58,294 nt of DNA from Acidimicrobiia bacterium (lineage in GTDB: Bacteria > Actinomycetota > Acidimicrobiia > IMCC26256 > JACDBD01), in the NCBI GenBank assembly GCA_036498645.1, contig DASYFC010000201.1, forward strand, positions 1 through 58,294, read 5' to 3'. The notes beneath the pieces are model-generated. The model searched no databases, was not told the DNA's origin, and saw nothing but the letters and a program-made list of their open reading frames with translations. Within the stretch, counting starts at the first letter, position 1, and each line of letters opens with the position of its first letter. The translations under genes and the position numbers were made by a program. Positions 906 to 32,166 of this stretch are shown piece by piece.

Positions 906-1001
906 GGCTGCGACCTATCGGATGGCCGATGAGAGAGGGATGAGGCAGGGGTTACACTACGCGGAGGCCGGCCTGGCATTCCGGCCACATATCAGTCCCG
1001 G

Positions 1002-1077
1002 GGCCGACAACCCCGCGGTGGGCGACCAGGCTGTCCCCGCCGGCCACAACCGGGGCTTCCCGAAAGGGAACACACCC
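1002..1077 (+). promoter_or_regulatory. Candidate NAD+ class-I (nadA-motif-like) riboswitch / structured 5' leader of nadA
   Basis: Two GGCC-ACAACC repeats (1002-1014 and 1042-1053). The first folds as a bulged stem-loop: GGCCG(1002-1006)/CGGCC(1041-1045), a 5' bulge ACAACCCC(1007-1014), then GCGG(1015-1018)/CCGC(1037-1040). The second is followed by a TTCCC-GAAA-GGGAA hairpin (1057-1070), which buries the only SD-like purine run, about 8 nt before the nadA ATG. Confidence 0.4.
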
Positions 1078-2202
1078 ATGTTGCGACTCCAGGCCCTCCT
1101 GCCGGACAGATACACCCTCGCGTCGAGCGAGGAGATCGACGAATGGATCGCCGCCGCCAAGGCCACGCTCGGCTCGAAGCTGCTCATCCTCGGACATCAC
1201 TACCAGCGCCCCGAAGTCATCAAGTGGGCGGACGCCCGCGGCGACTCGTTCAAGCTCGCACGTTTCGCGGCCGACAACGACCACGCCACCGACATCGTCT
1301 TCTGCGGCGTGCACTTCATGGCCGAGTCCGCCGACATCCTCACGGGCGAGCACCAGCGAGTCATCCTCCCCGATCTGAACGCAGGGTGTTCGATGGCCGA
1401 CATGGCCGACCTGGACCAGGTCGAGGAGTGCTGGGAGTCGCTGGCGGGCGTCACCGACGTCGAGCGCATCGTGCCCATCACGTACATGAACTCGTCCGCG
1501 GCGCTGAAGGCCTTCGTCGGCGAGCACGGCGGCGCCGTATGCACGAGCTCGAACGCGCAGGCGATCCTCGATTGGGCGCTCGCTCGCGGCGACAAGGTCC
1601 TGTTCTTCCCCGACCAGCACCTCGGACGGAACACCGGCTACCAGATGGGCTTCGACGAGCCCGACATGCGCGTGTGGGATCCGCGTCACGATCTCGGCGG
1701 GCTCGAGGAGCGCGACGTTAAAGGCGCCACCTTCCTGCTCTGGAAGGGGCATTGCTCCGTGCACCAGCGGTTCCGGACCGAGCACGTCGACGCGTTCCGA
1801 GCCGAGCATCCCGACGGTCAGGTGATCGTCCACCCCGAGTGCGCGCACGAGGTCGTCGAGGTCGCCGACAAGGTTGGGTCGACCGAGCGCATCCTCGAAT
1901 GGGTCGAGGCGGCGCCGCCGGGATCGGTGGTCGCTGTCGGCACCGAGATCCACATGGTGCAGCGCATGGCCGAGGAGCATCCCGACAAGACGGTCGTCTC
2001 CCTCGACCCGCTGATCTGCCCGTGCTCGACCATGTTCCGCGTCGACGGCCCGCACCTGGCCTGGTGCCTCGAAGCCCTAGCGCGTGGTGAGCTCGTTAAC
2101 CAGATCGTCGTCGACGACCGCACGGCACAATGGGCGCGGGTCGCGCTCCAGCGAATGCTCGACCTCCCCGGCGCGCCGACCGCGGCGGCCAAGGTCGACT
2201 AG
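1078..2202 (+). CDS. nadA: Quinolinate synthase NadA
   Basis: ORF 796..2202. The internal ATG at 1078 (MLRLQALLPDRY) precedes the conserved blocks LILGHHYQRPEV, GVHFMAESADIL, YMNSSAALKAF, VHPECAHEV and CPCSTMFR. The upstream 94 codons look non-coding. Confidence 0.9.
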   Translation: MLRLQALLPDRYTLASSEEIDEWIAAAKATLGSKLLILGHHYQRPEVIKWADARGDSFKLARFAADNDHATDIVFCGVHFMAESADILTGEHQRVILPDLNAGCSMADMADLDQVEECWESLAGVTDVERIVPITYMNSSAALKAFVGEHGGAVCTSSNAQAILDWALARGDKVLFFPDQHLGRNTGYQMGFDEPDMRVWDPRHDLGGLEERDVKGATFLLWKGHCSVHQRFRTEHVDAFRAEHPDGQVIVHPECAHEVVEVADKVGSTERILEWVEAAPPGSVVAVGTEIHMVQRMAEEHPDKTVVSLDPLICPCSTMFRVDGPHLAWCLEALARGELVNQIVVDDRTAQWARVALQRMLDLPGAPTAAAKVD

Positions 2203-3847: not shown

Positions 3848-6745
3848 TCACGCGACGGCGTGCTCGTCGAGCCCGAGGATCGGCGCGAGGAAGCTTCCCG
3901 TGTAGCTACCTTCGGTCTTTGCGACGTGCTCGGGCGAGCCCTCGGCCACGATCTGCCCCCCGGCGTCACCGCCCTCCGGCCCGAGGTCGATGATCCAGTC
4001 CGCCGACTTGATCACGTCGAGGTTGTGCTCGATCACCAACACGGTGTTCCCGCCCTCTACGAGGCGCGAGAGCACGCCGAGCAGCCGCTTCGTGTCCTCG
4101 AAATGCAACCCGGTCGTCGGCTCGTCGAGCATGTACACGGTGCGCCCGGTGGCCCGCTTCCCGAGCTCCGATGCCAGCTTCACCCGCTGCGCCTCGCCGC
4201 CCGACAGTGTGGGCGCGGGCTGCCCGAGCCGCACGTAGCCGAGCCCGACGTCGAACAGGGTCTGGAGCTGGCGGGCGATCGGCGGCTGGTGCTTGAAGAA
4301 CTCGAGCGCCTCCTCGATCGACATGTCGAGGACCTCGGCGATGTTCTTGTTCTTGAACGTGACGTCGAGCGTGTCCCGGTTGTAGCGGGCGCCCTTGCAC
4401 ACCTCGCACGGCACGTAGACATCGGGAAGGAAGTGCATCTCGATCTTGATCGTCCCGTCGCCGGCGCACGCCTCGCACCGGCCGCCCTTCACGTTGAACG
4501 AGAACCTTCCGGGCAGGTAGCCCCGCACCTTCGCCTCGAGGCTCGACGCGAACAGCGTGCGGATCTTGTCGAACACACCCGTGTACGTCGCGGGGTTGGA
4601 CCGTGGTGTCCGACCGATCGGCGACTGGTCGATGTTGATGACCTTGTCGACGAGCTCCGTACCCTCGATCGTCTTGTGGCGGCCGGGCACGGTCCGTGAC
4701 CGGTACACCTTCTGCATGAGCGCGTGGTAGAGGATGTCGTTCACCAACGTCGACTTGCCGCTGCCGCTCACGCCCGTGATCGCGACGAAGCACCCGAGCG
4801 GGAAGTCGACGTCGATGTTCTGCAGGTTGTGCTCGCGCGCGTCCCGTACCGTCAGCCACGCCTCGCCCGGCTGGCGGCGCATCTCCGGGACCGGAATGGA
4901 CCGCTCCCCCGCCAGGTACTGACCGGTGATCGACCGCGGCTCGGCGAGAACGTCGTCGAGCGTGCCGCGGGCGACGATCTCGCCACCGTGCTCCCCGGCA
5001 CCTGGCCCGATGTCGACGATGGTGTCGGCCGATCGGATCGTCTCTTCGTCGTGCTCGACGACGATCACCGTGTTCCCGAGGTCACGAAGCCGCAGGAGGG
5101 TGTCGAGGAGCCGGTGGTTGTCGCGCTGGTGCAACCCGATCGACGGCTCGTCGAGCACGTACAGCACCCCGACCAGTCCGCTGCCGATTTGCGACGCCAG
5201 CCGGATGCGCTGCGCTTCGCCGCCGGCGAGCGTCGCCGACGACCGGTTCAACGACAAGTAGTTGAGCCCCACGTCGAGCAGGAAGCGGAGCCGCTCGTTG
5301 ACTTCCTTCAACACTGCTTCGGCGATCATCAGGTCGCGCTCGGACAGCTCGAGCCCGCCGAGGAATTCCGCCGCCTTGGCGATCGACAACTGCCCGAGCT
5401 CGTAGATGTTCATCCCGCCGACCGTGACCGCCAGCGAGGCCGGCCGCAGCCGGGCGCCGTGACACACGGGGCACGGCACCTCACGCATGTAGCCCTCGAT
5501 CTGCTCGCGCACCCGGTCGCTCTCCGCTTCGGAGTGGCGGCGTTCGAGCCACGGCACCACGCCCTCGAACTCTGTCGTGTACGAGCGCTGCCGCCCGTAC
5601 CGGTTGCGGTACCGGACGTTGATCGCGCGCTTGCCCGAACCGTGGAGCACGGCTTGCTTGTCGCGCTTGCGGAGCTTGCGCCAAGGCGTGTCGACCGAAA
5701 AGCCGTACTCCTTCGCTACCGCGCCGAGCACCCGGTCGAAGTACTGGCTGCGGAACCCGGCCCACGGCGCGATTGCGCCCTCGGTGATGCTGAGGTCGTC
5801 GTCGGAGACGACCAGCTCCGGATCGACCTCGAAGCGGGTCCCGAGCCCGTCGCAACGCTCGCACGCGCCGTAGGGCGAATTGAACGAGAAGTTGCGCGGC
5901 GCGAGCTCCTCGAACGACAAGCCGCAACTGGCACAGGCCAGGTGCTCCGAGAAGGTGAGGACCTCGCGGTCCTCGTCGTGCTCTTCCTCGCCTTCCCGCG
6001 GGACGATCTCGACCTCGGCGACACCCTCGGCCAGGCGCAGCGCCGTCTCGAGCGAGTCGGTGAGCCGGCGTTCGATGCCCGCGCGCCGAACCAGCCGGTC
6101 GACGACCACCTCGATCGTGTGCTGCTCGTACCGGGCGAGTCGCTCCCGACTCGCCGCGTGACCGCCCGAGCCGCGCATGCTCGACAGCTCGTGCACCTCG
6201 CCGTCGATCCGCGCCCGGGTGAACCCCTGACCGGCGAGCTCGGTCAGCAGCCCCTCGTACTCGCCCTTCCGGCCCCGCACGACGGGCGCGAGCACCTGGA
6301 ACCGCGTGCCGTCCGGCAGCTGGAGCACCCGGTCGACGATCTGTTGGGGCGTCTGCCGGGTAATGACCCGACCGCAGTTGGGACAATGGGGCAGGCCGAT
6401 CCGGGCGTAGAGAAGCCGCAGATAGTCGTAGATCTCGGTGATCGTCCCGACGGTCGACCGCGGGTTCTTCGACGCCGACTTCTGGTCGATCGAGATCGCC
6501 GGCGACAGGCCCTCGATGAAGTCGACGTCGGGCTTGTCCATCTGGCCGAGGAACTGACGGGCGTACGCGGACAGCGACTCGACGTACCGGCGCTGCCCCT
6601 CGGCGTAGATCGTGTCGAACGCCAGCGAGGACTTCCCCGAGCCCGACAAGCCGGTGAAGACGATCAGGCGGTCCCGGGGCAGCTCGAGGTCGACGTTCTT
6701 GAGGTTGTGCTCTCGAGCCCCCCGGATCGTGATTGCATCCGCCAC
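3848..6745 (-). CDS. uvrA: Excinuclease ABC subunit A
   Basis: 965 aa. Two ABC ATPase modules ([23 protein letters not shown] and [10 protein letters not shown]), Zn-finger cysteines (CPVCHGARL) and LSGGEAQR signatures. GTG start at 6745. Confidence 0.97.
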
Positions 6746-7203: not shown

Positions 7204-9240
7204 TCAGCTCACCTCGCGCAGCTCCCGCTTGAGCTCACCGATCTCGTCGCGCAGGCGGGCGGCCTCCTCGAAGCGGAGATCCTTCGCCGCGTCGTGCATC
7301 TCGTCCTGGAGGGTCTGGATGAGCTTGCCGACGTCGTCCGGCGCGACCCCCTCGAGATCGAAGACCGCCGAACGCTTGGGACCGCGCCCACGTCCCCGGC
7401 CCCGGCCTCGACCGACGCGTACGTCGTCGTCTTCTCCCTCACGGGCGCGCACCATCTCGAGGATGTCGACGACCTTCTTGCGGATCGTCTGGGGGTCGAT
7501 CCCGTGCTCGGCGTTGAACTCGAGCTGCACCTTCCGCCGCCGGTTCGTCTCGGAGATGGCTCGGCGCATCGAGTCCGTCACCTGGTCGGCGTACATGACC
7601 ACCTGACCGTCGACGTTGCGGGCGGCGCGCCCCATCGTCTGGATCAGCGACGTGTCGGAGCGCAGGAAGCCCTCCTTGTCGGCGTCGAGGATCGCAACCA
7701 GCGACACCTCGGGAAGGTCGAGGCCCTCACGCAGCAGGTTGATGCCGACGAGCACGTCGAACTCGCCGAGGCGCAGCGCCCGGAGAATCTCGACCCGTTC
7801 GAGCGTGTCGATCTCGCTGTGCAGGTACCGGACCCGAATGCCCAGCTCGATCAGGTAGTCGGTCAGGTCCTCGGACATCTTCTTCGTGAGCGTCGTGACG
7901 AGCACGCGCTGCTCGGCCTCGGCGCGGGCGTTGATCTCGGCGACGAGGTCGTCGATCTGGCCTTTGGTCGGCTTCACGATCACCTCGGGGTCGACGAGCC
8001 CGGTGGGCCGCACGATCTGCTCGACGACCTGCTTGGACTTCTCGAGCTCGTACTCGCCGGGTGTCGCCGACATGAAGACCACCTGGTTCACGTGCTCGAT
8101 GAACTCGTTGAACCGCAGGGGCCGGTTGTCGAGCGCGGACGGGAGCCGGAAGCCGTGCTCGACGAGCGTCTCCTTGCGGGACCGGTCACCCTCGTACTGC
8201 CCGTGCAGCTGCGGGACCGTCACGTGCGACTCGTCGAGCACGCAGAGGAAGTCGTCGGGGAAGTAATCGAGCAGGGTGTACGGCATCTGGCCGGCCTCCC
8301 GGCCGTCGAGGAACCGCGAGTAGTTCTCGATCCCGGAGCAGGTGCCGATCTCGCGGAGCATCTCGAGGTCGTAGGTCGTACGCATCCGCAGGCGCTGCGC
8401 TTCCAGCAGCTTGCCCTTCGACTCGAACCACGCCAGCCGATCCTTGAGCTCGGCCTCGATGCCCTCGATCGCGCGCTCCATGTGGTCCTCGTCGGTGACG
8501 TAGTGCGACGCCGGGAACAGCACGAACCGATCGAGCTCCTCGACGATCTCGCCGGTGACGGCGTCGACGGAGTACATCCGCTCGATCTCGTCGCCGAAGA
8601 GCTGGATGCGCACGCCCCGTTCCTCGTAGGCGGGGAACACCTCGATCGAGTCCCCTCGCACCCGGAACTTGTTCCGGACGAAGCCCTCGTCGTTGCGCTC
8701 GTACTGGAGCTCGACGAGCCGGCGCAGGATCGCCCGCTGGTCGTGCTCCTCCCCCACGCCGAGCATGAGGCACTGCTGCTCGTACAGCTCGGGTGAGCCC
8801 AGGCCGTAGATCGCTGAGACCGACGCCACGATGATCACGTCCCTGCGGGACATGAGGGCGCTCGTGGCGGAGTGACGGAGCCGGTCGATCTCGTCGTTGA
8901 TCGACGAGTCCTTCTCTATATACGTGTCGGACGACGGGACGTAGGCCTCGGGCTGGTAGTAGTCGTAATAGGAGACGAAGTACTCCACCCGGTTCTTGGG
9001 GAAGAACTCGCGGAACTCGCTCGCCAGCTGGGCGGCCAAGCTCTTGTTGGGGGCGAGGATGAGCGTGGGACGCTGGGCCCGGGCGATCGCGCCGGCGATC
9101 GTGAACGACTTCCCGGACCCGGTGATGCCGAGCAGCGTCTGGTACCGGTCGCCCCGCTCGACGCCGGTCGCGAGCGCCTCGATCGCCTCCGGCTGGTCAC
9201 CGGCGGCCGTGAACGGGGAAACGAGCTCGAGGAGCGGCAT
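7204..9240 (-). CDS. uvrB: Excinuclease ABC subunit B
   Basis: 678 aa. Walker [15 protein letters not shown] box (DESHVTVPQ) and a C-terminal UVR domain ([11 protein letters not shown]). An unusual (RG)5 linker lies at about 7378-7413. Confidence 0.97.
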
Positions 9241-9435: not shown

Positions 9436-10566
9436 ATGGACTACGAATCTGCGCTCGCGCGCGTCATCGATGACGTCGTCGAGCCCGGCGCCGTCGCCGT
9501 CGACCGCGACGGGACCTACCCCCGAGCTCAGCTCGAGGCGCTCGGCGAGGCCGGCATCCTCGGGCTCGCCAGCTCGCCGGACGTCGGGGGCGGCGGTGCG
9601 GACCTCGGCGCGGCGGCCTCCGTCGTGGAGCAGCTCGCCCGCCACTGCGGGTCGACGGCGATGGTCGTGATGATGCATTACTCGGCGACGGCCGTCATCG
9701 AGGCGCACGGCCCGCAGGAGATCCGCGAGGCGATCGCCGCCGGTCGCCACGTGACGACGCTCGCGTTTTCGGAGACCGGGAGCCGGAGCCACTTCTGGGC
9801 CCCGGTCGGCACCGCGACCCGGCAGAACGGCGCCGTCCGCCTCGACGCCCAGAAGAGCTGGGTCACGGCCGCGGGTGAGGCCGACAGCTATGTCTGGTCG
9901 AGCCGACCCATGGCGGCGGCGGGCCCGATGACGCTGTGGATCGTCCCGTCGGACGCCCCCGGCCTCAACGTGCCGGCGCCGTTCGACGGTCTCGGGCTGC
10001 GCGGGAACGCTTCGAGCCCGGTGACGGCGGACGCCGTCGAGGTGCCGGCGGCGGCGATGCTCGGCGGTGACGGTGCGGGGCTCGACATCGCGTTGACGGT
10101 CGTTCTCCCGTGGTTCCTCGTGCTGAACGCGGCTGCGAGCATCGGCTTGATGCAGGCGGTGACGGACGAGGCGACGGCACACCTCACGCGCACCCAGCTC
10201 GTTCACCTCGGCCAGACACTCGCGCAGCAACCAGTCGGCCGGGCCCGCCTCGCTCAGATGCGCGTCGAGACCGATCAAGCCGCGGCGTTGCTGTCGCACG
10301 CGCTCGCAGCGATCGGGGCGGGCCGCGAGGACGCGCAGCTGCGCGTGCTCGAGGTCAAGGCGGCCGCCGGCGAAGCCGCGATCGACGTGACCGATCTCGC
10401 GATGCAGGTGTGCGGGGGCGCCGCGTTCCGCAAAGAGCTCGGCGTCGAGCGGCGGTTCCGCGACGCACGCGCCGCCCGGGTCATGGCACCTACGACCGAC
10501 GCCCTGAACGACTTCATCGGCCGCGCGCTGTGCGGCCTGCCGTTGCTCGACGAGGCCCCGGCATGA
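9436..10566 (+). CDS. Acyl-CoA dehydrogenase-fold flavoprotein (type-2 / DszC-, SfnB- or nitrososynthase-like)
   Basis: 376 aa. ACAD-like blocks AFSETGSRSHFWAP, LGLRGNASSPV and C-terminal RRFRDARAARVMAPT. Strong SD (GCAGGAGGA) before the ATG. Confidence 0.8.
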   Translation: MDYESALARVIDDVVEPGAVAVDRDGTYPRAQLEALGEAGILGLASSPDVGGGGADLGAAASVVEQLARHCGSTAMVVMMHYSATAVIEAHGPQEIREAIAAGRHVTTLAFSETGSRSHFWAPVGTATRQNGAVRLDAQKSWVTAAGEADSYVWSSRPMAAAGPMTLWIVPSDAPGLNVPAPFDGLGLRGNASSPVTADAVEVPAAAMLGGDGAGLDIALTVVLPWFLVLNAAASIGLMQAVTDEATAHLTRTQLVHLGQTLAQQPVGRARLAQMRVETDQAAALLSHALAAIGAGREDAQLRVLEVKAAAGEAAIDVTDLAMQVCGGAAFRKELGVERRFRDARAARVMAPTTDALNDFIGRALCGLPLLDEAPA

Positions 10567-11423
10567 GCGGCGACGCGCTCGTCATGGGCGCGGTCGCGTA
10601 CGACCCCAAGGTGGTGACGATCTGGGATGGGTTCCGGTCCTGGCTCCGCGGCCGCGGGCTCGAATTCGACTACATCCTGTACTCGAACTACGAGCGCCAG
10701 GTCGAGGAGCTGCTCACCGGCCGCATCGTCGCGGCATGGAACTCGCCGCTGGCGTGGATCCGTGCTCAGCGCCTCGGCGCCGCTGCGGGGGTCCCGGTGC
10801 AGGCGTTGACGATGCGTGACAGCGACCGCGATCTCACGTCGGTCGTCGTCGTCCGAGCCGACTCGGGGATCGCCGGCGTCGCCGATCTCGCGGGCAAGGT
10901 TGTCGCGACCGGCGCGATCGACTCGCCGCAGTCGACGCTGATCCCGCTCTCGTACCTGAGAGCGGCGGGGCTCGAACCCGGCCGTGATGTCGACGTGCGG
11001 CGGTTCGACGTGGGCGTCGGGCTCCACGGTGATCACATCGGCGGCGAACGCGAGGCCGCCCGAGCCCTCGTCGCCGGCGAGGTCGACGCCGCGTGCATGA
11101 TCGACGGCAACCACCTCGCGTTCGGCGCGGAAGGAACGCTGCCGGCCGGCACCACCGCCGTCATCGGGCAGACGGATCGGTTCGACCACTGCAACATGAC
11201 CGTGCGCTCCGACAGCCCCCGAAACCCGATCGCCCGGTTCAACGAGTTGCTGCTCGGAATGTCGTACGGCGACGCCGAGGTCCGGCCGCTGCTCGACCTG
11301 GAAGGGTTGAAGGCGTGGGAAGAGGGACGAACGTCCGGCTACGCGCTACTCGACGCGGCGGTGTCGGAGACAGGCTTCTACGACCATGAAGGACACATTG
11401 GCGACGCCGACTATCGACCTTGA
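10563..11423 (+). CDS. PhnD/SsuA-like periplasmic-binding-protein-fold protein without a signal peptide
   Basis: The internal ATG at 10563 overlaps the upstream stop (ATGA). MSGDALVMGAVAYDPKVVTIWDGF... shows an alternating beta-alpha pattern typical of type-2 binding proteins. No hydrophobic leader or lipobox. Confidence 0.6.
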   Translation: MSGDALVMGAVAYDPKVVTIWDGFRSWLRGRGLEFDYILYSNYERQVEELLTGRIVAAWNSPLAWIRAQRLGAAAGVPVQALTMRDSDRDLTSVVVVRADSGIAGVADLAGKVVATGAIDSPQSTLIPLSYLRAAGLEPGRDVDVRRFDVGVGLHGDHIGGEREAARALVAGEVDAACMIDGNHLAFGAEGTLPAGTTAVIGQTDRFDHCNMTVRSDSPRNPIARFNELLLGMSYGDAEVRPLLDLEGLKAWEEGRTSGYALLDAAVSETGFYDHEGHIGDADYRP

Positions 11424-12573
11424 GGGGCTCGGATTCGATCGCGGCGCCGGTCTCCTGCTCGAGCGAGCCCTCGCGGGGCTCTCACCCGGGAACCGCCTCG
11501 AGGTCGTGGGTCGCGATCCGGCCCTGACCGTCGACCTCGCACCCTGGTGCCGGAGACGCGGCCACCGCCTCGAAGCCGGAAACGTCGTGGTGAAGGGCTC
11601 CGCCGCCGCCGACCGGTGGCTCGGTGCCACGCGAGCGGGCGCGCCCGGGCCCGGTGGCGTCGTCGAACGACCCGACCCCGCCTGGGGGCTGGCGGCCCGC
11701 GGCGCGCTCGTCGAGGCCGGAGCGAAGCCGTCCGGCTTCGACCTGGACGAGCGCGCCGTCGTGTGGGCCGACATCGCGCCGCGTCTCTACGCGCAAGCGG
11801 TGGCGAGCCAGTGGGATCCCGCGACCGAGATCGCCTGGGACGCCGCCGAGGAGCTGCCGCCCGAGATCGAGGCGGCGGTGGTCCAGGTCATGACCTATCT
11901 CGTCGAGAACGAGCAGGCGGCGCTGGTCGTGCCTGCTCGCTTCGTCGGCCGGGTTCACCCACATTTCCGTGAGGTCATGCAGCTCCTCGCCGTTCAGGTC
12001 GCCGACGAAGCGCGCCACGTCGAGGTCTTCGCACGGCGCGCCGCGCTCCGCGGCGGTCCGCTCGGCGTGTCGACGACGGGAGGTCGAGCGTCGCTGCAGA
12101 CGCTCCTCGACGAGCCCGACTTCTCGCTGGCGTCGTTCCTGCTCTCCGTGCTCGGTGAGGGCACGTTCCTCAACCTCTTGTCGTTCATCGAGACCTATGC
12201 CCCCGACACGGTGACCCGCCAGGTCGCGCATCTCGCGCTCCAGGACGAAGCCCGCCACGTCGCGTTCGGCCTCGCGCACCTCGAGCACCGCGTCGAGATC
12301 GACCCCGGTCTGCTCGGACGGCTGCGCCTCGCGATCGAGCGTCGCCACGACGCGCTGGCGTCGACGGCAGGATTGAACCAGGACGTGTTCGACGCGCTCG
12401 TCGTGCTCGCTGCGGGCTCGTGGACGCCCGACGCGATCGCGACCGGTTATGAGCGGGTGCAGGCACTCACGGTCGACATGGACGACGGCCGCCGGCGCCG
12501 GCTCGCACGCCTCGGCTTCCCCGCCGACGAGTCGGCCGAGTTGTCCGCGCTACATACGCGCAACTTCATGTAG
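11386..12573 (+). CDS. Fusion of a TusA/SirA-like domain (no Cys) with a ferritin-like di-iron carboxylate domain
   Basis: The N-terminus IDLEGLGFDRGAGLLLERALAGLSPGNRLEVVGRDPALTVDLAPWCRRRGHRL aligns with TusA, but the CP motif is replaced by FD. The C-terminal half carries two E-x30-32-DEARH motifs (E176...DEARH207-211 and E258...DEARH287-291). Confidence 0.65.
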   Translation: MKDTLATPTIDLEGLGFDRGAGLLLERALAGLSPGNRLEVVGRDPALTVDLAPWCRRRGHRLEAGNVVVKGSAAADRWLGATRAGAPGPGGVVERPDPAWGLAARGALVEAGAKPSGFDLDERAVVWADIAPRLYAQAVASQWDPATEIAWDAAEELPPEIEAAVVQVMTYLVENEQAALVVPARFVGRVHPHFREVMQLLAVQVADEARHVEVFARRAALRGGPLGVSTTGGRASLQTLLDEPDFSLASFLLSVLGEGTFLNLLSFIETYAPDTVTRQVAHLALQDEARHVAFGLAHLEHRVEIDPGLLGRLRLAIERRHDALASTAGLNQDVFDALVVLAAGSWTPDAIATGYERVQALTVDMDDGRRRRLARLGFPADESAELSALHTRNFM

Positions 12574-13193: not shown

Positions 13194-14639
13194 TCAGCCG
13201 GTCTCGGCCGGCGGCACGTCGTCGCCGGTTGCCGTCGCCTCCGCCGGCGTCTCGGTCGAGGGCTCGCCTGCAGCCGGTGCGTCCGGTGAGGCCGCGGCTT
13301 CGCCTGCCGCGGCTTCGGCGCTCGCGGCCGCCTCGGTCTCCTCGGCCGTGGGACCGATGTACTGGCCCTGCTCGTCGAAGGCGTCTTCGCCGAAGTGCTC
13401 GCGGTACTCGGCCGCGACCTCGCCACCCTCGGCCGCTTGCTTGATCGACAGCGAGATGCGCCGCCGGTCGAGATCGATGTCGATGATCTTCACCCACAGC
13501 TCTTCGCCTGGGGTGACGACCTGCTCGGGCGCTTCGACGTGGTGCGCCGCCATCTCCGAGATGTGCACCAGTCCCTCGATGCCCTCGCCGACCTGCACGA
13601 ACGCACCGAACGGCACGAGCTTGGTGACCTTCCCGTACACGAGCTCGCCGACCTGGTGGCCGTTCGCGAACTCCTGCCACGGATCCTGCTGCGTGGCTTT
13701 CAGTGACAGCGAGATGCGTTCGCGGTCGAGATCGACGTCGAGCACCTGCACCTCGACCTCGTCGCCGACCTGCACCACCGAGCTCGGGTGGTCGACGTGC
13801 TTCCAGCTCAGCTCGGAGACGTGCACCAGGCCGTCCATGCCGCCGAGGTCGACGAAAGCGCCGAAGTTCACGACGGACGAGACCACGCCCTTCCGGATCT
13901 CACCTGGCTTCAGGTTGGCGAGGAACTCGTCGCGCTGCTCGCGCTGCGTCTCCTCGAGGTACGCGCGCCGTGAGAGCACGACGTTGTTGCGGTTCTTGTC
14001 GAGCTCGATGATCTTGGCGTCGAGGTTCCGGCCGACGAACGGATGCAGGTCGCGCACCCGGCGCAGGTCGACAAGTGACGCGGGCAGGAAACCGCGGAGC
14101 CCGATGTCGAGGATCAGACCACCCTTGACCACCTCGATGACCGGCCCGGAGACGATGCCGTCCTTCTCCTTGACCGCCTCGATCGTCCCCCACGCGCGCT
14201 CGTACTGCGCGCGCTTCTTCGACAGGATCAGCCGGCCGTCCTTGTCCTCCTTCTGGAGGACGAGCGCCTCGAGCTCCTCGCCCAGATCGACGACCTCGTG
14301 GGGGTCGATGTCGTTGCGGATCGAGAGCTCGCGGGACGGGATGACACCCTCGGACTTGTAGCCGATGTCGAGCAGGACCTCGTCGCTGTCGATCTTGACG
14401 ACCTTGCCGGACACGATGTCGCCGTCGTCGAACTCGACGATCGTGGCATCCACCGCATCCGAGAAGGATTGCGTCCCGAGGTCGTCGAGGACGACCGGAC
14501 CGCCGTCGGGCGGGGACTCGGCGGTTGCTACGGCGCCCGCAGCGCCGGATGGCTGCGAGGCCGCAGCCGACTCACTCTGACTCGTCTCGGGCACGGGAGC
14601 GTTGTCGGTCGCTCCTGTGGCCTCCTGCTCGGACAACAT
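13194..14639 (-). CDS. rpsA: 30S ribosomal protein S1
   Basis: ATG at 14639 is preceded by AAGGAG. Repeated S1 domains (GEIRKGVVSSVVNFGAFVDLGGMDGLVHVSELS and others). Acidic Ala/Glu-rich C-terminal tail. Confidence 0.95.
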   Translation of the reverse strand: MLSEQEATGATDNAPVPETSQSESAAASQPSGAAGAVATAESPPDGGPVVLDDLGTQSFSDAVDATIVEFDDGDIVSGKVVKIDSDEVLLDIGYKSEGVIPSRELSIRNDIDPHEVVDLGEELEALVLQKEDKDGRLILSKKRAQYERAWGTIEAVKEKDGIVSGPVIEVVKGGLILDIGLRGFLPASLVDLRRVRDLHPFVGRNLDAKIIELDKNRNNVVLSRRAYLEETQREQRDEFLANLKPGEIRKGVVSSVVNFGAFVDLGGMDGLVHVSELSWKHVDHPSSVVQVGDEVEVQVLDVDLDRERISLSLKATQQDPWQEFANGHQVGELVYGKVTKLVPFGAFVQVGEGIEGLVHISEMAAHHVEAPEQVVTPGEELWVKIIDIDLDRRRISLSIKQAAEGGEVAAEYREHFGEDAFDEQGQYIGPTAEETEAAASAEAAAGEAAASPDAPAAGEPSTETPAEATATGDDVPPAETG

Positions 14640-14747
14640 TGCTCCTTGGAAACAGTGATCGCTCCCCCTGCCTGCCGGCGCACCTCGGGTGACGACGCGA
14701 GCGCGGGAAACCGGCCCCGGAGGACCGTTCACCAGGCTAACCCACGG

Positions 14748-15536
14748 TCAGGTGTGCCGCCGAGCCAGGAGCAGCAATTCGGGGTCGTCGAGCGTCGGCG
14801 ACGCGGTTCCGTAGCGTCCCGGTGCGACGCCGTGCACGCCGACCGCATCGAGCCCGGCGCGCCCGGCAAGCAGCTGGAGCTCGCGCGCCGTGAAGCACGT
14901 CGTCCAGAGGTCGAACACCTCCTCCGCGCCGTCCTCGTTGCGGACGGTGGACCGCTCGTGGAGCACACCGGTGGCGGGGTCGAAGCTCTCCCCCTCCTCG
15001 AGGAAGCGGACGGCGAAGGCGGCGGAAAAAGCGGTGAGGGCGAGCCGGCCACCGGGACGGAGCGCGGCGGCGATGCGCTCGAAGGCCCGGGGCTCGTCGC
15101 GGCCACCGAGGAGCCCGAACCCTCCCTGGCAGAGGCAGACGACGGCGTCGAACTCGCCGTCGTACGCAAGGTCGCGGACGTCGCCGACCTCGAAGCGCGC
15201 CGGCAGCCCGTCCGCCTCGGCCGCGTCTCGGGCCAAGGTGATGAAGTCCTCCGACAGGTCGACGCCCACCACGTCGATCCCGCCTCGGGCGAGCGCGAGC
15301 GCATGGCGCCCCGGGCCGCACCCGACGTCGAGCACCCGTGCACCGCGCTCGAGCCCGAGCGCGTCGACGAGGAACGCGACGTCTTGCTCCGTTCCCTTCG
15401 TGAACGCGTTCCGCAGGTACGCCGGGCCCAGAAACCGAGCGATCCGGTTGAACCATGGACCCGTTGGCGTCAGGGGCGTCTCAGTCACGCAGCGAGGGTC
15501 CTTCCTCTCGCCTGTGCATGGACGAGTTGTCCGCAC
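14748..15536 (-). CDS. Class I SAM-dependent methyltransferase
   Basis: 262 aa. Motif VLDVGCGPGRHALALA. A GTG at 15488 is an alternative start. Confidence 0.8.
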   Translation of the reverse strand: MRTTRPCTGERKDPRCVTETPLTPTGPWFNRIARFLGPAYLRNAFTKGTEQDVAFLVDALGLERGARVLDVGCGPGRHALALARGGIDVVGVDLSEDFITLARDAAEADGLPARFEVGDVRDLAYDGEFDAVVCLCQGGFGLLGGRDEPRAFERIAAALRPGGRLALTAFSAAFAVRFLEEGESFDPATGVLHERSTVRNEDGAEEVFDLWTTCFTARELQLLAGRAGLDAVGVHGVAPGRYGTASPTLDDPELLLLARRHT

Positions 15537-15641
15537 TCGGGCGCGTTGGTCGATTTGTTCGATCGGTGTGCGCGTCGCGAGTACGTCGGTACGGAAGGTT
15601 CACCGTGGTCTGGTCGTCCGGCCGCGCATAGCGTCCCGCCG

Positions 15642-15932
15642 GTGGGTATCCGCTGGTCGCCGGAGACCCAACCACCGAAGCTCACGTTGGGCGAATGGCT
15701 CTGCATCGTCCGCGCCCGGGCCGGCATCAGCCGCAAAGAGCTTGGCGCCGACCTTGGCGTTTCCGGTGCGCTCGTGTCCCAATGGGAAGCCGACGACAGC
15801 CTGCCGAACGTCGAGCAGTTCCGTGACATCACAGAGCTCTGCGCGGCTCACTGGCTTTGGGAAGCGGTCAAAGACGGGGACGTATGCATGGGACCGGAGG
15901 CGAAGGAGGTACGGGCCCGGCAACACACCTGA
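15642..15932 (+). CDS. Small XRE-family HTH protein
   Basis: This is the tail of ORF 14298..15932: LGEWLCIVRARAGISRKELGADLGVSGALVSQWEADDSLPNVEQF. The GTG start at 15642 is a guess. GC3 is visibly lower than in neighbouring genes. Confidence 0.5.
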   Translation: MGIRWSPETQPPKLTLGEWLCIVRARAGISRKELGADLGVSGALVSQWEADDSLPNVEQFRDITELCAAHWLWEAVKDGDVCMGPEAKEVRARQHT

Positions 15933-16168: not shown

Positions 16169-18826
16169 CTACTTGGCTTCGGCCCACGTGGGACCGAACC
16201 CGAGGTCGACGACGAGCGGGACCTTCAGGGTGCACACGGACTCCATGACCTCGCGCACGAGCGCCTCGACGCGTTCGCGTTCGTCGAGCGGCACCTCGAG
16301 CACCAGCTCGTCGTGGACGGTGAGGACCATGCGGGCGCGGAGACCGGCGTCGTCGAGCGCCTGATCGAGCTCGACCATCGCCAGTTTGAAGACGTCGGCG
16401 GCCGAGCCTTGCACCGGCGCGTTCTGCGCCATGCGCTCCCCCATCTGCCGGATGCGGAAGTTGTCGGACGACAGCTCGGTGATCTGACGGCGACGGCCGA
16501 AGATCGTCGTCGTGTAGCCGCGCTGTTTCGCCTCTCGCACCGTGCTGTCCATGAACTCCTTCACGTTCGGGAAGCTCGCGAAGTAGTTGTCGAGGATCTC
16601 GCGTGCTTCCTCGGTCGGGACGCCGAGGCGCTGGCCGAGCCCGTACGCCTCCATCCCGTACGCGAGGCCGAAGTTGACGACCTTCGCGAAGCGGCGCTGG
16701 AAGGGATCGACGTCTTTCTCGTCGACGCCGAAGACCATCGCCGCCGTCGTGGTGTGGATGTCGGCGCTGCGGGAGAACGCTTCGACCAGCCCGGGATCGT
16801 CCGTGAGATGCGCGAGCACCCGCAGTTCGATCTGCGAGTAGTCGGCCGTCAGCAGCCCGCAGCCTTCGTCGGCGATGAACGCACGCCGCATCTCCCGGCC
16901 GTCGGCTGTGCGCACGGGGACGTTCTGGAGGTTCGGGTTCTCGCTCGAGATGCGACCGGTCGTCGTGTCGGTCTGCTTGAAGGTGGCGTGGATGCGCCCG
17001 TCGTCGTGGATGAGCGGAGGCAATGCGTCGGCGTACGTGCTGCGGAGCTTCTCGACTTCGCGGTAGCGCAAGAGGTCTTCGATGATCGGGTGCTCGTCGA
17101 CCATCTTCTGGAGCGAGTCGGCGTCGGTCGACGGGCCGGTCTTCGTCTTCTTCACCGGCGCCAAGCCGAGCTTCTCGAAGAGGACCTCGCGCAGCTGGGG
17201 CGTGGAGTTCACATTGAACTCCATCCCGGCGTGAGCCTGGATCTTCCCCACGAGGTCCTCGCAGCTCTGCGCGAGCTCGGCGCGCAGGCCCTCGAGGAAC
17301 TGGCGGTCGACCTTGACGCCGGCGTCCTCCATCCGCGCCAGCACACGTACGAGCGGCCGCTCGACGCGCTCGTAGAGGTCGGTGAGCTCGCGTGCCTCCA
17401 GCGCCTCGGCGAGCGTTCCGGCGAGGCGGCGCACAGCCAGGGCGCGCCGTCCCGTCTCTTCGACGCGGGACTGGCCGTCGAGGTCGAGGTCGAGCGTGCC
17501 CTCCTCGGCGTCGGGTGAGCGCACCTCGAGCGACAGATACCGCAGCGCAAGGTCCTCGAGCAGGTACTTCCCCTCGGCGGGATCCAGCAGGTACGCCATC
17601 ACCGCCGTGTCGTACCGCAGCGAGCGCACGTCGACGGGAAGGCCGTGCATCAGCTCCTTGGCGCGGTGGACGACCAGAGGCGGGCCGCCTTCACCGACGA
17701 GCGCGCCGAGTGCGTCGCTCACCTTCGCGTCGCGCAGCACGTCGCCGTCGATGTAGTCGGCGCGCCCGTCCTCGTTGCTGGCGGCGATGCCGAGCAGCGG
17801 GCTGCGGCCGGCGTCAGCTTCCCACCGGCCCTCGAGCACGTACGCGTCATCGACCGCGCCGAGGTCGCGCAACCGCGTAGCGGCCGCCGCCGCGTCCGGG
17901 ACGATCGCGACGTCGGCGTCGAACGACTCTGCCTCGGGCTCGGAGGCCTCTTCGCCGACCGCCTCGAACAATCGGGGCAGGAGCGTTCGGAACTCGAGCT
18001 GGTCGAACAGCACTCGCACCTGCTCGCGATCCCACGAGCGCTGCCGGAGGTCGGCGGCCGAGAAGTCGACCTCCACGTCCGACCGCAGCCGCGACATCTC
18101 GCGGTTGAGGAACACGCGGTCGCGTGCCTCACCGAGGTTCTGCCGTTGCTTGGGCGGCAACTCGTCGACGTGCTCGTAGATGCCCTCGAGGTCGCCGTAC
18201 GTCGAGACGAGCTTCGCCGCCGTCTTCTCGCCGATGCCGGGAACCCCGGGAAGGTTGTCGCTGGTGTCGCCGCGGAGCGCGGCATAGTCGGGATACTGCG
18301 CGGCGGTGACGCCACCGGTGCGCTCGACGATGCCGGCCTCGTCGTAGAGGACGTAGTCCGAGACGCCCCGCCGGTTGTACAGGACCTTGACGTGCGGGTC
18401 GTGGACGAGCTGGTAGGTGTCGCGGTCGCCGGTGACGATCACGGTGTCGATCCCCTCCCCCGCCGCCTGCTCGGCGAGGGTGGCGATGACGTCGTCGGCT
18501 TCGACCCCCTCGACCTCGACCGTGGGGATCGCGAGCGCTTCGAGCACCTCGTGGATCAACGGCAGCTGCGAGGAGAACACGTCCGGCGTCTCCTTGCGCC
18601 CCGCCTTGTACTCGGCGTCCATCTCGTCCCGGAACGTCGGCGCCCCGGTGTCGAAGGCGACGGCGATGTAGTCGGGCTTCTCGTCCCCGAGCATCTTGAT
18701 CAGCATCGAGGTGAAGCCGTAGACGGCGTTCGTGATCGTCCCGGTGCGGGTCGCGAGGTCGGTGGGGAGGGCATAAAAGGCCCGGTACGCCAGCGAGTGA
18801 CCGTCAAGAAGAAGGAGCTTTTTCAT
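16169..18826 (-). CDS. polA: DNA polymerase I
   Basis: 885 aa. The 5'-nuclease N-terminus is LLLLDGHSLAYRAFYALP. Polymerase motif A is LLTADYSQIELRVLAH, motif B RRFAKVVNFGLAYGM and motif C LTVHDELVLE. Confidence 0.97.
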   Translation of the reverse strand: MKKLLLLDGHSLAYRAFYALPTDLATRTGTITNAVYGFTSMLIKMLGDEKPDYIAVAFDTGAPTFRDEMDAEYKAGRKETPDVFSSQLPLIHEVLEALAIPTVEVEGVEADDVIATLAEQAAGEGIDTVIVTGDRDTYQLVHDPHVKVLYNRRGVSDYVLYDEAGIVERTGGVTAAQYPDYAALRGDTSDNLPGVPGIGEKTAAKLVSTYGDLEGIYEHVDELPPKQRQNLGEARDRVFLNREMSRLRSDVEVDFSAADLRQRSWDREQVRVLFDQLEFRTLLPRLFEAVGEEASEPEAESFDADVAIVPDAAAAATRLRDLGAVDDAYVLEGRWEADAGRSPLLGIAASNEDGRADYIDGDVLRDAKVSDALGALVGEGGPPLVVHRAKELMHGLPVDVRSLRYDTAVMAYLLDPAEGKYLLEDLALRYLSLEVRSPDAEEGTLDLDLDGQSRVEETGRRALAVRRLAGTLAEALEARELTDLYERVERPLVRVLARMEDAGVKVDRQFLEGLRAELAQSCEDLVGKIQAHAGMEFNVNSTPQLREVLFEKLGLAPVKKTKTGPSTDADSLQKMVDEHPIIEDLLRYREVEKLRSTYADALPPLIHDDGRIHATFKQTDTTTGRISSENPNLQNVPVRTADGREMRRAFIADEGCGLLTADYSQIELRVLAHLTDDPGLVEAFSRSADIHTTTAAMVFGVDEKDVDPFQRRFAKVVNFGLAYGMEAYGLGQRLGVPTEEAREILDNYFASFPNVKEFMDSTVREAKQRGYTTTIFGRRRQITELSSDNFRIRQMGERMAQNAPVQGSAADVFKLAMVELDQALDDAGLRARMVLTVHDELVLEVPLDERERVEALVREVMESVCTLKVPLVVDLGFGPTWAEAK

Positions 18827-21457: not shown

Positions 21458-21541
21458 GCCCGGGTGGCGCAATTGGCTGACGCGATGGACTCAAAATCCA
21501 TTGTCCGAAAGGACGTGCGGGTTCGAGTCCCGCCCCGGGCA
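21458..21541 (+). tRNA. tRNA-Leu (anticodon CAA), class II with a long variable arm
   Basis: Acceptor stem GCCCGGG/CCCGGGC plus discriminator A. Anticodon stem ATGGA/TCCAT with loop CTCAAAA. Variable arm TGTCCGAAAGGACG. T-arm GCGGG-TTCGAGT-CCCGC. No encoded CCA. Confidence 0.85.
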
Positions 21542-21646
21542 CAGTTCACTCCGTCGGAAGCGGTTTGACCGTTCTGAAAAACGCGGTAGGTGGGTACCCC
21601 CTCGTTAGGATGCACGACTAGACGCGCGGAGCGGTGCGGAGTGGTG

Positions 21647-30552: not shown

Positions 30553-32160
30553 GTGGCCGAAGACGAAAGCCCTAGCATGCCGCACGTGCCTCGGCCCGTG
30601 ATCGTCACCGTCGAGGCGTCACCGCCCGAGGTCGAGGAGGTCGCGCGCGAAACACTCGGGCTGCGACGCGATGACGACGGCACGCTCACCGGATCCTTGC
30701 CCGACTGGACCGATCCGAACGCCCGCGTCCGCGTCGAGATCGCATCGGAGGACACGGGACGGACAAGGGTCTCGATCGAGATCGAGGGCACGCCTCATGT
30801 GCCGTACTTCCAGTGGTTCTTCGGCCCGCTCCTGCGCCGGGGCGAGCGGCGCACGCTGCAGCACCGGGCCGAACTTCTCGCCGCAGAGATCGAGGGGCGG
30901 CCGAAGCCACCGCCGCCGAAGCGCTCGCCACTCCTCCCCCCGGTGCCGTTCCCCGCCCGGGCGACGGCGCTGCTGGCAACAGTGGCGGCCATCGCCGCGC
31001 TCGCGAACTTCGGCGGTGCGTTGTTCGGCCAGACCGCGGACTCGGTCACGAGGACGTTCGGCGAGTCGAACCGGGGGCTCGGGCTCGCGCTGGCGGTGTC
31101 GAGAGGAGGCGTGCTCGTCTCGCTCGTCGCGACCGCGCTCGCCGACCGGCACGGGCGACGGCGCCTGCTCCTGATCTGCTTCGCGGGTGTCGGCGTCACC
31201 AACGCGTTCTCGGCGATCGCGCCGACCTTCGTCGCGTTCACCGGCGCTCAGGTGCTGACCCGGGCGTTCGTGAACGCGACGTTGGTCGTCGCCGGAATCG
31301 CGGCGATCGAGGAGGCGCCCGACGGTGCACGTGCCTACGCGTTGTCGATGCTCGCGCTTGCGTACGGCGCCGGTTTCGCGATCGCCGTCGTGCTCCTGCC
31401 CATCTCGGACCTCGCACCTCAAGCCTGGCGCATCGTCTTCGCCATCAGCGCGTTGACGATCTTGTTGCTCCCGCGTCTCGCACGCAACCTCCACGAGACG
31501 AGTCGGTACGCGGATCTCGCGAACCGAACGAGGCGCCGTGGGCAGCTCCGCGAGGTGTTCGCGAGTGTCTACGGCTTCCGGTTCGTCCTGTTGGGCCTGG
31601 CCGCGTTCCTCACGAATTTCTTCAGCGCGCCGTCCGCACAGCTCACGAACCGGTTCCTCACCGACGAGCACGGCTACTCGAACACGCTGATCGCCGTGTT
31701 CCGCGGCGTGACCGCCGGACTGCCCGGGCTGATAGGAATCGTGATCGCGGCGCGCCTCGCAGAGACGCGGGGCCGCCGCCCCGTCGCGATCGTTGCCCTC
31801 GCCGCGGCCACCATCCTCCAGATGGCGTTCTTCCTCGGGGGTGGCCTCGTTCTCTGGGTCACGGCGACGTTCGCCATCATCGCCGCCAGCTGCGCCGCGA
31901 TCGTCCTCGTCGCGTTCGATACCGAGCTCTTCCCGACCGAGGTGCGCGGTACGTCGAACGCGCTACTGCTCGTGTGCGCGGTGGTCGGGTCGGCCGCCGG
32001 GCTCCTCGTGGCGACGAATATCGACGACGTCCTCGGCGGGTTGGGGCCCGCCATCGCCGTCTGCGGCATCGCGCCGCTGCTCGCGGCGGTCTTTGTGCTC
32101 CCGTGGCTTCCGGAGCCCGCCGCTCGGACGCTCGACGAAGTCAGCCCGTCGGAGGTATGA
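30553..32160 (+). CDS. MFS transporter with an approximately 150-aa soluble N-terminal extension
   Basis: About 12 predicted TM helices from residue 150 onward (ALLATVAAIAALANFGG...). The N-terminus is charged and beta-rich (VRVEIASEDTGRTRVSIEIEG). Confidence 0.75.
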   Translation: MAEDESPSMPHVPRPVIVTVEASPPEVEEVARETLGLRRDDDGTLTGSLPDWTDPNARVRVEIASEDTGRTRVSIEIEGTPHVPYFQWFFGPLLRRGERRTLQHRAELLAAEIEGRPKPPPPKRSPLLPPVPFPARATALLATVAAIAALANFGGALFGQTADSVTRTFGESNRGLGLALAVSRGGVLVSLVATALADRHGRRRLLLICFAGVGVTNAFSAIAPTFVAFTGAQVLTRAFVNATLVVAGIAAIEEAPDGARAYALSMLALAYGAGFAIAVVLLPISDLAPQAWRIVFAISALTILLLPRLARNLHETSRYADLANRTRRRGQLREVFASVYGFRFVLLGLAAFLTNFFSAPSAQLTNRFLTDEHGYSNTLIAVFRGVTAGLPGLIGIVIAARLAETRGRRPVAIVALAAATILQMAFFLGGGLVLWVTATFAIIAASCAAIVLVAFDTELFPTEVRGTSNALLLVCAVVGSAAGLLVATNIDDVLGGLGPAIAVCGIAPLLAAVFVLPWLPEPAARTLDEVSPSEV

Positions 32161-32166
32161 AGCCCG

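Follow-up and report, generated by a model that had tools for sequence, protein, structure and literature searches.

Directly upstream of nadA, the gene for quinolinate synthase A, a contig of an Acidimicrobiia bacterium (DASYFC010000201.1, assembly GCA_036498645.1; the whole of its 58,294 nucleotides was analysed and is called the window here) carries a conserved folded RNA, which is a genuine one and lies outside the Acidobacteria. It opens with a 5' hairpin (H1) and a single-stranded linker, followed by a basal helix P0, a helix P1, an 8-nt bulge on the 5' strand (J1), and a distal helix P1a/P1b whose terminal loop forms a 5-bp pseudoknot with the loop of H1. Both its sequence and its secondary structure are conserved, it is found exclusively with nadA, and it keeps its position relative to a promoter element on one side and a Shine-Dalgarno (SD) sequence on the other. 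The generic hallmarks of a riboswitch, i.e. a fold supported by covariation, conserved unpaired nucleotides and a steady linkage to a metabolic gene, are thus present. With reasonable confidence, we read the element as a single-aptamer, pseudoknotted relative of domain 1 of the class-I nicotinamide adenine dinucleotide (NAD+) riboswitch (NAD+-I), which makes up the complete 5' untranslated region (UTR) of nadA and probably lowers its translation when NAD+ is high.

Conservation of the nadA leader RNA

Folding and Rfam threshold tests on the window were negative, and the window alone could therefore not settle the question. Single-sequence folding was no better than that of shuffled sequences, both for the leader and for 1000-1047 (z -0.53 and -0.47), and at the Rfam gathering thresholds the whole window returned a transfer RNA (tRNA) only and no riboswitch family, with no Rfam 15 family reaching threshold in the leader. 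Such folding is uninformative in DNA this rich in GC; the minimum free energy (MFE) structure is without the aptamer in about half of the members.

Relatives were collected by scanning the NadA protein of the window against one genome per GTDB species, with protein similarity as the sole criterion. This gave 80 loci (68-95% identity), 79 of which have upstream sequence, and essentially all of which belong, judged by their record titles, to Acidimicrobiia or Actinomycetota metagenome-assembled genomes (MAGs). The named hosts are Aquihabitans daechungensis DSM 27986 (L068), which alone is in culture and has its chromosome complete, and the MAGs of an Iamia sp. and a Rhabdothermincola sp. An exact ACANCCCC is located 69-114 nt 5' of the nadA ATG in 67 related loci, and the remainder carry one-mismatch variants at the same place. 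In a seed alignment of 25 leaders made with plain MAFFT, both partners have changed in 12 of the 21 pairs, and pairing is kept in 97.5% of the cells. The covariance model derived from this seed (R1) has exactly one match per locus in 77 of the 79 loci, always on the coding strand and just 5' of nadA, with scores of 47-92 bits; the match in the window (994-1057) reaches 91.1 bits, and the runner-up across 566 kb scores 21 bits.

Among 73 distinct members, both sides have changed in 15 of 21 pairs, and 96.8% of the cells are paired as opposed to 31-54% when the partners are slid; none of 500 shuffles reached the observed values. The structure-naive MAFFT alignment of 72 distinct full-length elements (A4), which includes H1, has both-side changes in 21 of 31 pairs and 95.3% of cells paired, versus 23-50% in the slid controls, again with 0 of 500 shuffles as high. 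Independently, RNAalifold gives H1, P0, P1 and P1a with 16 compensatory pairs out of 19, and an unbiased ranking of position pairs by mutual information with average product correction (MI/APC; 129 distinct sequences) places pairs of P0, P1, P1a and H1 on top. The conserved G.U pair 1022-1034, together with the U.G pairs in P0, identifies the RNA strand as the sense strand of nadA.

To the genomic loci we added a metagenome-wide scan with a pattern of J1 plus terminal loop, blind to H1, P0, P1 and gene context. Of the 80 loci found in this way, 66 have strong R1 matches. In all 60 of the R1 elements that could be evaluated nadA lies downstream, 72-176 nt (mostly <110 nt) from the pattern match, and the NadA encoded is mostly about 59-94% identical to that of the window. 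Thirteen pattern matches had no nadA downstream. These have no covariance-model match, their P1/P0 flanks are missing and 12 of the 13 lie inside open frames of at least 1.2 kb; they are therefore chance matches. Taken together, wherever the gene downstream of a genuine element could be read it was nadA, in 77 genomic and 60 metagenomic cases (137 of 137).

A first-pass annotation, made from the letters of the window alone, had drawn the central hairpin of P1, ACAACCCC and P1a, and this hairpin is kept in 77/79 genomic and 60/60 evaluable metagenomic nadA leaders with abundant compensatory changes. The comparison of related nadA leaders that it had proposed as a check came out in favour of this hairpin, the bulge being conserved and the stems compensatory. 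All the parts it had listed, P1, ACAACCCC, P1a, ACAACCGG (1046-1053), UUCCC-GAAA-GGGAA (1057-1070) and the ATG at 1078, are where it had put them.

The two loci without an upstream element, L025 and L028, are the sole ones among the 79, and the NadA match of L025 begins at residue 2 with TTG; nadA could be operonic or differently regulated in both. Three contigs (L011, L012 and L026) are labelled Bifidobacteriaceae or Burkholderiales, yet their NadA is of the Acidimicrobiia type (77-81% identity) and is preceded by the same leader RNA. These bins are probably mislabelled or contaminated.

Architecture of the leader

The coordinates of all features are collected in Table 1. P0 is an 8-bp outer helix stacked under P1, with changes on both sides in 7 of its 8 pairs, and it contributes several of the top MI pairs (1001-1050, 994-1057, 996-1055, 995-1056, 998-1053 and 997-1054). 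P1 is paired in 99.7% of cells, and 4 of its 5 pairs are compensatory. Two pairs that frame J1, the penultimate P1 pair C1005:G1042 and the first P1a pair G1015:C1040, are invariant in 73 of 73 sequences. Within J1, positions 1-3 and 6-8 are nearly invariant, while position 4 is free and position 5 is an A in 7 sequences. Beyond it, P1a/P1b forms a constant 8-bp helix (4 + 4 bp) with a 5' bulge of 1-3 nt and a 3' strand of 8 nt, or 9 nt in one subgroup; here, GCGG/CCGC has become GUGG/CCAC in 18-19 sequences, and the pair 1020-1036 changes from G-C to A-U or U-A. The 3'-side bulge between P1 and P0 has modal lengths of 4, 3 and 5 nt according to a structural parse of 76 leaders. The possibility that the terminal-loop GG at 1029-1030 pairs with the J1 cytidines, as a substitute for the J2 guanines of NAD+-I, was considered and is superseded by the pairing of this loop with that of H1.

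One subgroup (L040, L060 and L023) has a distal helix of GUGGGA/UCCCAC plus CGG/CCG with a bulged C, in which CCAGG makes up nearly the whole loop. This subgroup has the top score for RF03013, the Rfam family of NAD+-I (19.5 bits, E 0.022), and may therefore be the form closest to the canonical class.

The stem of H1 is paired in 91.9% of cells of A4, with both-side changes in 4 of 6 pairs, e.g. to GCCAC/GUGGC or AUCGGC/GCCGAU. Its loop kisses the terminal loop, and each of the 72 sequences of A4 forms all five pairs of this interaction. The middle pair is U-A in 58 of them, C-G in 10 and G-C in 4, and the second pair is C-G in 70 and U-A in 2. The metagenomic set adds 45 copies with CCUGG/CCAGG, 7 with CCCGG/CCGGG, one with a U.G wobble, and one with CCAGG/CCUGG, which supplies a fourth pair type; 6 further copies failed a strict hairpin parse, and nonetheless have the complement in the expected region. 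Across both data sets the middle pair thus occurs as U-A, C-G, G-C and A-U, and 974-1028 is the third-highest MI/APC pair overall. We conclude that the 5-bp pseudoknot between the two loops exists. The linker that joins H1 to P0 might make a tertiary or ligand contact.

P0, H1 (966-986), the pseudoknot and the -10 box at 952-957 are all absent from the first-pass annotation. Two alternative pairings of this region were tried and rejected. The first was an anti-aptamer role for the upstream CCGGCG against the CGCCGG of the P1a/P1 3' strand, for which there is no covariation, with members of the GUGG/CCAC type keeping CCGGCG; this block is in fact the 3' arm of H1. The second paired the linker with the start-codon region, where the match is the trivial CAU/AUG complementarity and is unconserved beyond 3 nt.

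A 9-nt direct repeat, CCGGCCACA, is present at 981-989 (H1 3' arm and start of the linker) and at 1040-1048 (P1a/P1 3' strand and start of the 3' bulge). In principle, the 5' arm GGCCGG of H1 (966-971) could pair with either copy, as a possible misfold or alternative conformer. This complementarity is lost in relatives with an altered H1 stem (e.g. GCCAC/GUGGC), and the repeat is probably a by-product of CCGG-rich helices.

Three loci deviate at their 5' side. L046 (JBCKKA010000059.1, about 2300-2470) has a core of 88.7 bits and no H1, with tandem copies of ACUACGAAUCCAGC upstream instead. At 63 nt and with a long hairpin, its expression platform is exceptionally large, and the locus may be either a natural variant that lacks H1 or an artefact of assembly. 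The 5' region is rearranged in L059, where CCUGG is located 5' of a different hairpin (GCCACC/GGUGGC), and in L014, where P0 is shortened and some 20 inserted nt separate it from H1. Both of these loci retain an intact core aptamer.

Upstream of the RNA, a TANNNT box occurs 124 times at offsets of -44 to -37 from the start of P0 and 8 times elsewhere in the 60 nt examined of 134 distinct upstream regions. An E. coli-type -35/-10 pair was not found. The position-locked -10 box puts the predicted start of transcription at about 963-965, just 5' of H1, so that the RNA (about 963-1080) would fill the entire 5' UTR.

Downstream, the spacing between P0 and the AUG is kept within narrow limits (median 23 nt). 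The AUG is preceded at 3-14 nt by an SD-like tract, which is GGGGG, GGAGG or GGGAG in relatives and a weak GGGAA in the window. Most leaders fold this tract into a hairpin of 4-5 bp as its 3' strand, with the C-rich 5' strand following P0 directly. The earlier placement of the SD-like sequence in the 3' arm of a hairpin was borne out by local MFE folding and by computed accessibility: the SD of the window has an unpaired probability of 0.03, versus 0.28 with the 5' flank shuffled, and in 123 leaders the values are 0.27 versus 0.35, 87 of them being less accessible than their control (Wilcoxon p = 1.3e-7). No intrinsic terminator was found in the leader, and no conserved anti-sequestor or alternative pairing was found in the leaders. 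The one anti-sequestor candidate, pairing of the GGAG-like 3' arm of P0 with the C-rich arm of the SD hairpin, was discarded, as its 2-nt loop is sterically too tight and the pairing is unconserved.

Table 1. Features of the nadA leader and of the remainder of the window.
Feature	Position	Strand	Remarks
-10-like box TACACT (TANNNT)	952-957	+	position-locked relative to P0
Hairpin H1	966-986	+	5' arm GGCCGG 966-971, loop CCUGGCAUU 972-980, 3' arm CCGGCC 981-986; covariation in A4, RNAalifold
Kissing-loop strand 1, CCUGG (H1 loop)	972-976	+	pairs with 1026-1030
Linker ACAUAUC	987-993	+	single-stranded, between H1 and P0; sequence and length kept in most members
P0 5' arm AGUCCCGG	994-1001	+	pairs with 1050-1057
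P1 5' arm GGCCG	1002-1006	+	pairs with 1041-1045
J1, 8-nt 5'-side bulge ACAACCCC	1007-1014	+	consensus ACANCCCC; between covarying P1 and P1a
P1a/P1b 5' strand	1015-1023	+	GCGG 1015-1018, bulged U1019, GGGC 1020-1023; pairs with 1033-1040
Terminal loop GACCAGGCU	1024-1032	+	conserved 9-nt GACC[A/G/C]GGCU, CCAAG variant
Kissing-loop strand 2, CCAGG (terminal loop)	1026-1030	+	pairs with 972-976
P1b/P1a 3' strand GUCC-CCGC	1033-1040	+	covariation
P1 3' arm CGGCC	1041-1045	+	
3'-side bulge ACAA	1046-1049	+	between P1 and P0; 3-5 nt in relatives, usually A-final
P0 3' arm CCGGGGCU	1050-1057	+	covariation with 994-1001
SD-sequestering hairpin UCCC-GAAA-GGGA	1058-1069	+	local MFE; SD-like GGGA(A) 1066-1070; begins directly after P0
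nadA (quinolinate synthase A)	1078-2202	+	Pfam PF02445, E 8.5e-98; start ATG at 1078
uvrA	3848-6745	-	
uvrB	7204-9240	-	
Acyl-CoA dehydrogenase	9436-10566	+	
rpsA	13194-14732	-	
polA	16169-18826	-	
tRNA-Leu (anticodon CAA), long variable arm	21458-21542	+	sole Rfam gathering-level match and sole ARAGORN match in the window
FabA-like, SDR and ketoacyl-synthase genes	21.9-29 kb		
PALP enzyme	36576-37949	-	
trpE-like	47490-49547	-	
AT3-SGNH acyltransferase	53540-55795	+	

Relation to NAD+ riboswitches and proposed function

Class-I NAD+ riboswitches are known from Acidobacteria only, always upstream of nadA and always in tandem, and each of their domains consists of P1, the bulge ACANCCCC and P1a (PMC6859854, PMC7297122). 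Canonical domain 1 strictly has a 7-bp P1a and an AGYG internal loop, with G36 and G38 pairing with C14 and C13 of J1; the adenine of the ligand docks on the penultimate P1 pair C6:G47 and stacks on A8, Mg2+ ions bridge the ligand diphosphate to the J1 neck, and the ribosome-binding site (RBS) sits in domain 2 (PMC6859854, PMC7297122). Domain 2 has the same pocket without the J1-J2 pairs, and it binds about 35-fold more weakly, at millimolar ligand, which is why this pairing is said to "tune" affinity (PMC7708056).

The Acidimicrobiia leader shares much of this. In both, the RNA is located in the 5' UTR of nadA, an 8-nt ACANCCCC J1 is placed on the 5' strand between P1 and P1a, and the helix beyond J1 is of fixed length. 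The J1 of the window, ACAACCCC, is identical to that of the crystallised domain 1 of Ca. Koribacter versatilis, C1005:G1042 corresponds to the canonical pair C6:G47, and the G:C pair opening P1a is likewise conserved (Koribacter sequence and role of the pair: PMC7297122). In the class-I crystals it is J1 and these two pairs that touch the ADP moiety of the ligand. Natural variation within J1 fits the class-I crystal structure as well, since it is the unpaired positions 4 and 5 that vary while 6-8 are constant. Furthermore, the RBS is part of a downstream structure in both, implying a translational switch of the OFF type. When three leaders were compared with all 4227 Rfam families, RF03013 came out best in each of them, with 13.0 bits for the window, 16.0 for L047 and 19.5 for L040 (E 0.022). 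A permissive cmscan of 880-1130 aligned this model over its full length on 1002-1045, with its J1 bulge on ACAACCCC (13.0 bits, E = 3.3).

The differences are equally clear. There is one bulged domain instead of two, each leader giving a single RF03013 or R1 match. In place of the 7-bp P1a with its AGYG loop, the leader has 4 + 4 bp with a 1-3-nt 5' bulge and the loop GACCNGGCU, and the RF03013 alignment of the window deletes the A-G of AGYG. P1b is cut to 4 bp, and its conserved loop kisses the separate 5' hairpin H1. P0 with its 3' bulge, H1, the ACAUAUC linker and the kissing loop have no canonical counterpart. The last P1 pair is G:C in most members here, whereas it is A:U in the canonical RNA. 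The SD resides in a plain 4-5-bp hairpin adjoining P0 and not in the 3' arm of P1', although the two arrangements are functionally analogous, and the hosts are Acidimicrobiia (Actinomycetota) rather than Acidobacteria. The search with the Rfam nadA model that had been suggested as a check on the first-pass annotation yielded no match at the gathering threshold, the permissive 13.0 bits comparing with 37.5. Since the gathering score, the 7-bp P1a/AGYG, the second domain and an RBS within P1' are all lacking, we do not file the leader as a member of RF03013. The idea that NAD+-I occurs outside Acidobacteria accordingly holds for the J1 core, its C:G/G:C frame and RF03013 as the top family; it does not hold for the second domain, the 7-bp P1a/AGYG or the gathering score. 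The wording of the first-pass annotation, a divergent member or an independent nadA attenuator, came close to the truth.

Of the other known systems, domain 2 of NAD+-I resembles the leader in having a P1/J1 pocket without J1-J2 pairs that is coupled directly to sequestration of the RBS. Canonical domain 2, however, never occurs alone, has the RBS in the 3' arm of its own P1' and lacks a kissing-loop scaffold. The ubiB motif, a variant of nadA domain 1 with 9 representatives in Nocardia (Malkowski et al. 2019), is likewise actinobacterial and consists of a single domain-1-like aptamer followed by a plain uninterrupted RBS hairpin. By its description (PMC6859854, PMC7297122), it differs in keeping the 7-bp P1a and internal loop and in its gene (ubiB/aarF), and no H1, kissing loop or P0 is reported for it. 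The NAD+-II riboswitch (pnuC motif) also has an NAD-related ligand and contains a pseudoknot, but its sequence, fold and pocket are unrelated, it binds the nicotinamide moiety, and its associated gene is pnuC in Streptococcus. The permissive cmscan of 880-1130 gave no NAD+-II match at E <= 10, its output being RF03013 and one unrelated weak match. In other aptamers, distal loop-loop contacts apart from the binding pocket hold the pocket in shape. The leader resembles these in principle only, having a distal kissing contact separate from the pocket; there the contact joins two arms of a three-way junction, whereas here the partner is a separate 5' hairpin on a 7-nt strand. Subscription-only papers and unpublished motif collections aside, full-text literature searches turned up neither an NAD+ riboswitch nor any nadA leader RNA reported from Acidimicrobiia or Actinobacteria, and no third class of NAD+ riboswitch.

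Most likely, then, the leader RNA works like a class-I NAD+ riboswitch in which a different scaffold pre-organises the same kind of pocket. In this mechanism, P0 and P1, with the 3-5-nt 3' bulge between them, form the base for a J1 ACANCCCC framed by the invariant C:G and G:C pairs and followed by P1a/P1b. J1 and the top of P1 may constitute a Mg2+-dependent pocket of the class-I kind for the adenosine diphosphate (ADP) moiety, as suggested by their identity with the elements of the crystallised pocket, and the H1 kissing complex could take the pre-organising role that the J1-J2 pairs have in canonical domain 1. A pocket without these pairs is feasible, because domain 2 works in this way at lower affinity. 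A high level of NAD+, or of a closely related compound that contains ADP, would stabilise the compact fold, which is predicted to start at +1, to end about 23 nt before the AUG and to stack directly on the SD hairpin. Our best guess is that the stabilised fold would hinder binding of the 30S subunit and, by coaxial stacking, strengthen the marginal SD hairpin, and the outcome would be less initiation of nadA translation, i.e. an OFF switch. The ligand, be it NAD+ or a relative that also bears ADP, is inferred, as are the OFF logic and the transduction step, and the resemblance to class I may stem from common descent or from convergence.

Several observations weigh against this interpretation. 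The RF03013 scores of 13.0-19.5 bits are below the gathering score of 37.5, and without an AGYG internal loop there can be no canonical J1-J2 C:G pairs. The MI/APC search found no covarying partner for J1 or for the linker, and no alternative partner for the J1 cytidines. Even canonical domain 1 reads the ADP moiety alone and does not reject adenosine triphosphate (ATP), so that the ligand is uncertain there too (PMC10702441). Sequestration of the SD exceeds the composition control only modestly. In partition-function modelling, SD accessibility undergoes no aptamer-dependent change, being 0.27 for free leaders, 0.28 with the aptamer enforced and 0.24 with the 5' arms blocked, and the high stability of P0 and P1 makes a classic strand-exchange switch unlikely.

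A more far-reaching version, which we regard as doubtful, is that the leader represents a third NAD+-sensing architecture. In it, a J1 pocket clamped by the kissing loop would be complemented by nicotinamide-side contacts from the linker, running along P1/P0, and from the A-rich 3' bulge, and whole NAD+ would be recognised as opposed to ADP or ATP. Such nicotinamide-side contacts have never been seen in class I and, if they were true, one compact aptamer would discriminate against both ADP and ATP. The selectivity of class I is an open problem, as the bound moiety is ADP only, there is disagreement on what domain 2 does, and ATP is not rejected by the full-length RNAs (PMC6859854, PMC7708056, PMC10702441).

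It is unlikely, in our view, that the ACANCCCC pocket is re-tuned or convergent and that the riboswitch-like RNA senses another ligand, such as nicotinic acid adenine dinucleotide (NaAD), nicotinic acid mononucleotide (NaMN), NADH/NADP, ADP/ATP or quinolinate, or a composite signal. The missing J1-J2 tertiary contact would fit this, as would the conserved unpaired ACAUAUC and the 3' bulge with no canonical counterpart; moreover, the Nocardia ubiB variant places a domain-1-like aptamer on a non-NAD gene, and the canonical domain binds any ADP-bearing compound. However, the exclusive association with nadA at 137 of 137 evaluable loci points to an NAD-pathway signal rather than a general ADP/ATP sensor, and NAD+ is by far the most abundant compound of that pathway (PMC6859854).

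That the leader is structured and acts with no small-molecule ligand, as a site for a protein or RNA chaperone, an element for mRNA stability or RNase protection, or a constitutive translational damper, strikes us as rather improbable. Modelling predicts no secondary-structure switch, and a very stable fold that fills the 5' UTR from +1 is reminiscent of 5'-terminal stabilising structures. Yet the J1 8-mer of NAD+-I with its exact C:G/G:C frame, at the same gene, is unexpected of a protein site or a stabiliser, and invariant unpaired nucleotides, a fixed 8-bp spacing and a pseudoknot are typical of ligand-binding aptamers.

The canonical alternative, a tandem class-I NAD+ riboswitch whose domain 2 holds the RBS and whose second ACANCC bulge would lie at 1046-1053, is refuted by the comparative data. 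It was suggested by the window itself, where ACAACCGG following CGGCC superficially repeats GGCCG-ACAACCCC, and the first-pass annotation had described tandem bulged stem-loops. There is only one bulged domain. ACAACCGG, taken for a second bulge, is the ACAA 3' bulge plus the start of the P0 3' arm and is not kept even among the closest relatives, where the sequence reads GCAACC, UGACC or AGAACC; 1050-1057 pairs with 994-1001 under strong covariation, and each leader has one RF03013 or R1 match, with an RF03013 score far below the gathering threshold. Likewise, the GGCC-ACA repeat that was listed first proves to be the 3' arm of H1 and the start of the ACAUAUC linker, and the pairing proposed between GGG 1053-1055 and CCC 1075-1077 is incompatible with P0, where 1052-1054 are the covarying partners of 997-999. 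The caveat that the repeats might compete is moot. Chance GC-rich palindromes, or an operator at the DNA level for a repressor of the NrtR or NiaR type, would agree with single-sequence folding no better than shuffles and with the abundant CCGG palindromes and the direct repeat CCGGCCACA, but are effectively refuted by the covariation: compensatory changes keep RNA pairing rather than sequence, the opposite strand would have C.A in place of the conserved G.U pairs, and the two loops covary between sites about 50 nt apart.

The same J1 pocket signature is present in a second phylum, in Acidimicrobiia that are encountered in many environmental metagenomes, and the current Rfam nadA model misses a large related group. 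With a single domain and a kissing loop, proven by covariation, in place of the J1-J2 pairs, the leader offers a natural experiment on what the pocket cannot do without, on the tuning of affinity by pre-organisation and on the need for a second domain, within a short RNA (about 115 nt).

Gene neighbourhood

Both gene calls of the first-pass annotation around the leader were correct: the gene downstream is nadA, as its Pfam match attests, and the divergent open reading frame (ORF) ending at 905 is GT87-like. In the window nadA is monocistronic, the next gene being a convergent methyltransferase, and the neighbourhood consists of ordinary chromosomal housekeeping genes (Table 1), with no other NAD genes and, by R1 search, no second copy of the element. 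Two weak R1 matches in the window, 36739-36797 (+; 20.1 bits, E 0.25) and 6633-6691 (+; 18.1 bits, E 0.74), are treated as noise given the 47-92 bits of genuine elements; the latter falls within the range of the uvrA ORF. At E <= 1e-5, Pfam gave nothing for the ORFs 11386-12573, 14298-15932, 30813-32669, 33637-35010, 35083-36615, 44490-46496 and 49544-52435. Some of the long ORFs without a Pfam match may be wrong-frame ORFs in high-GC DNA.

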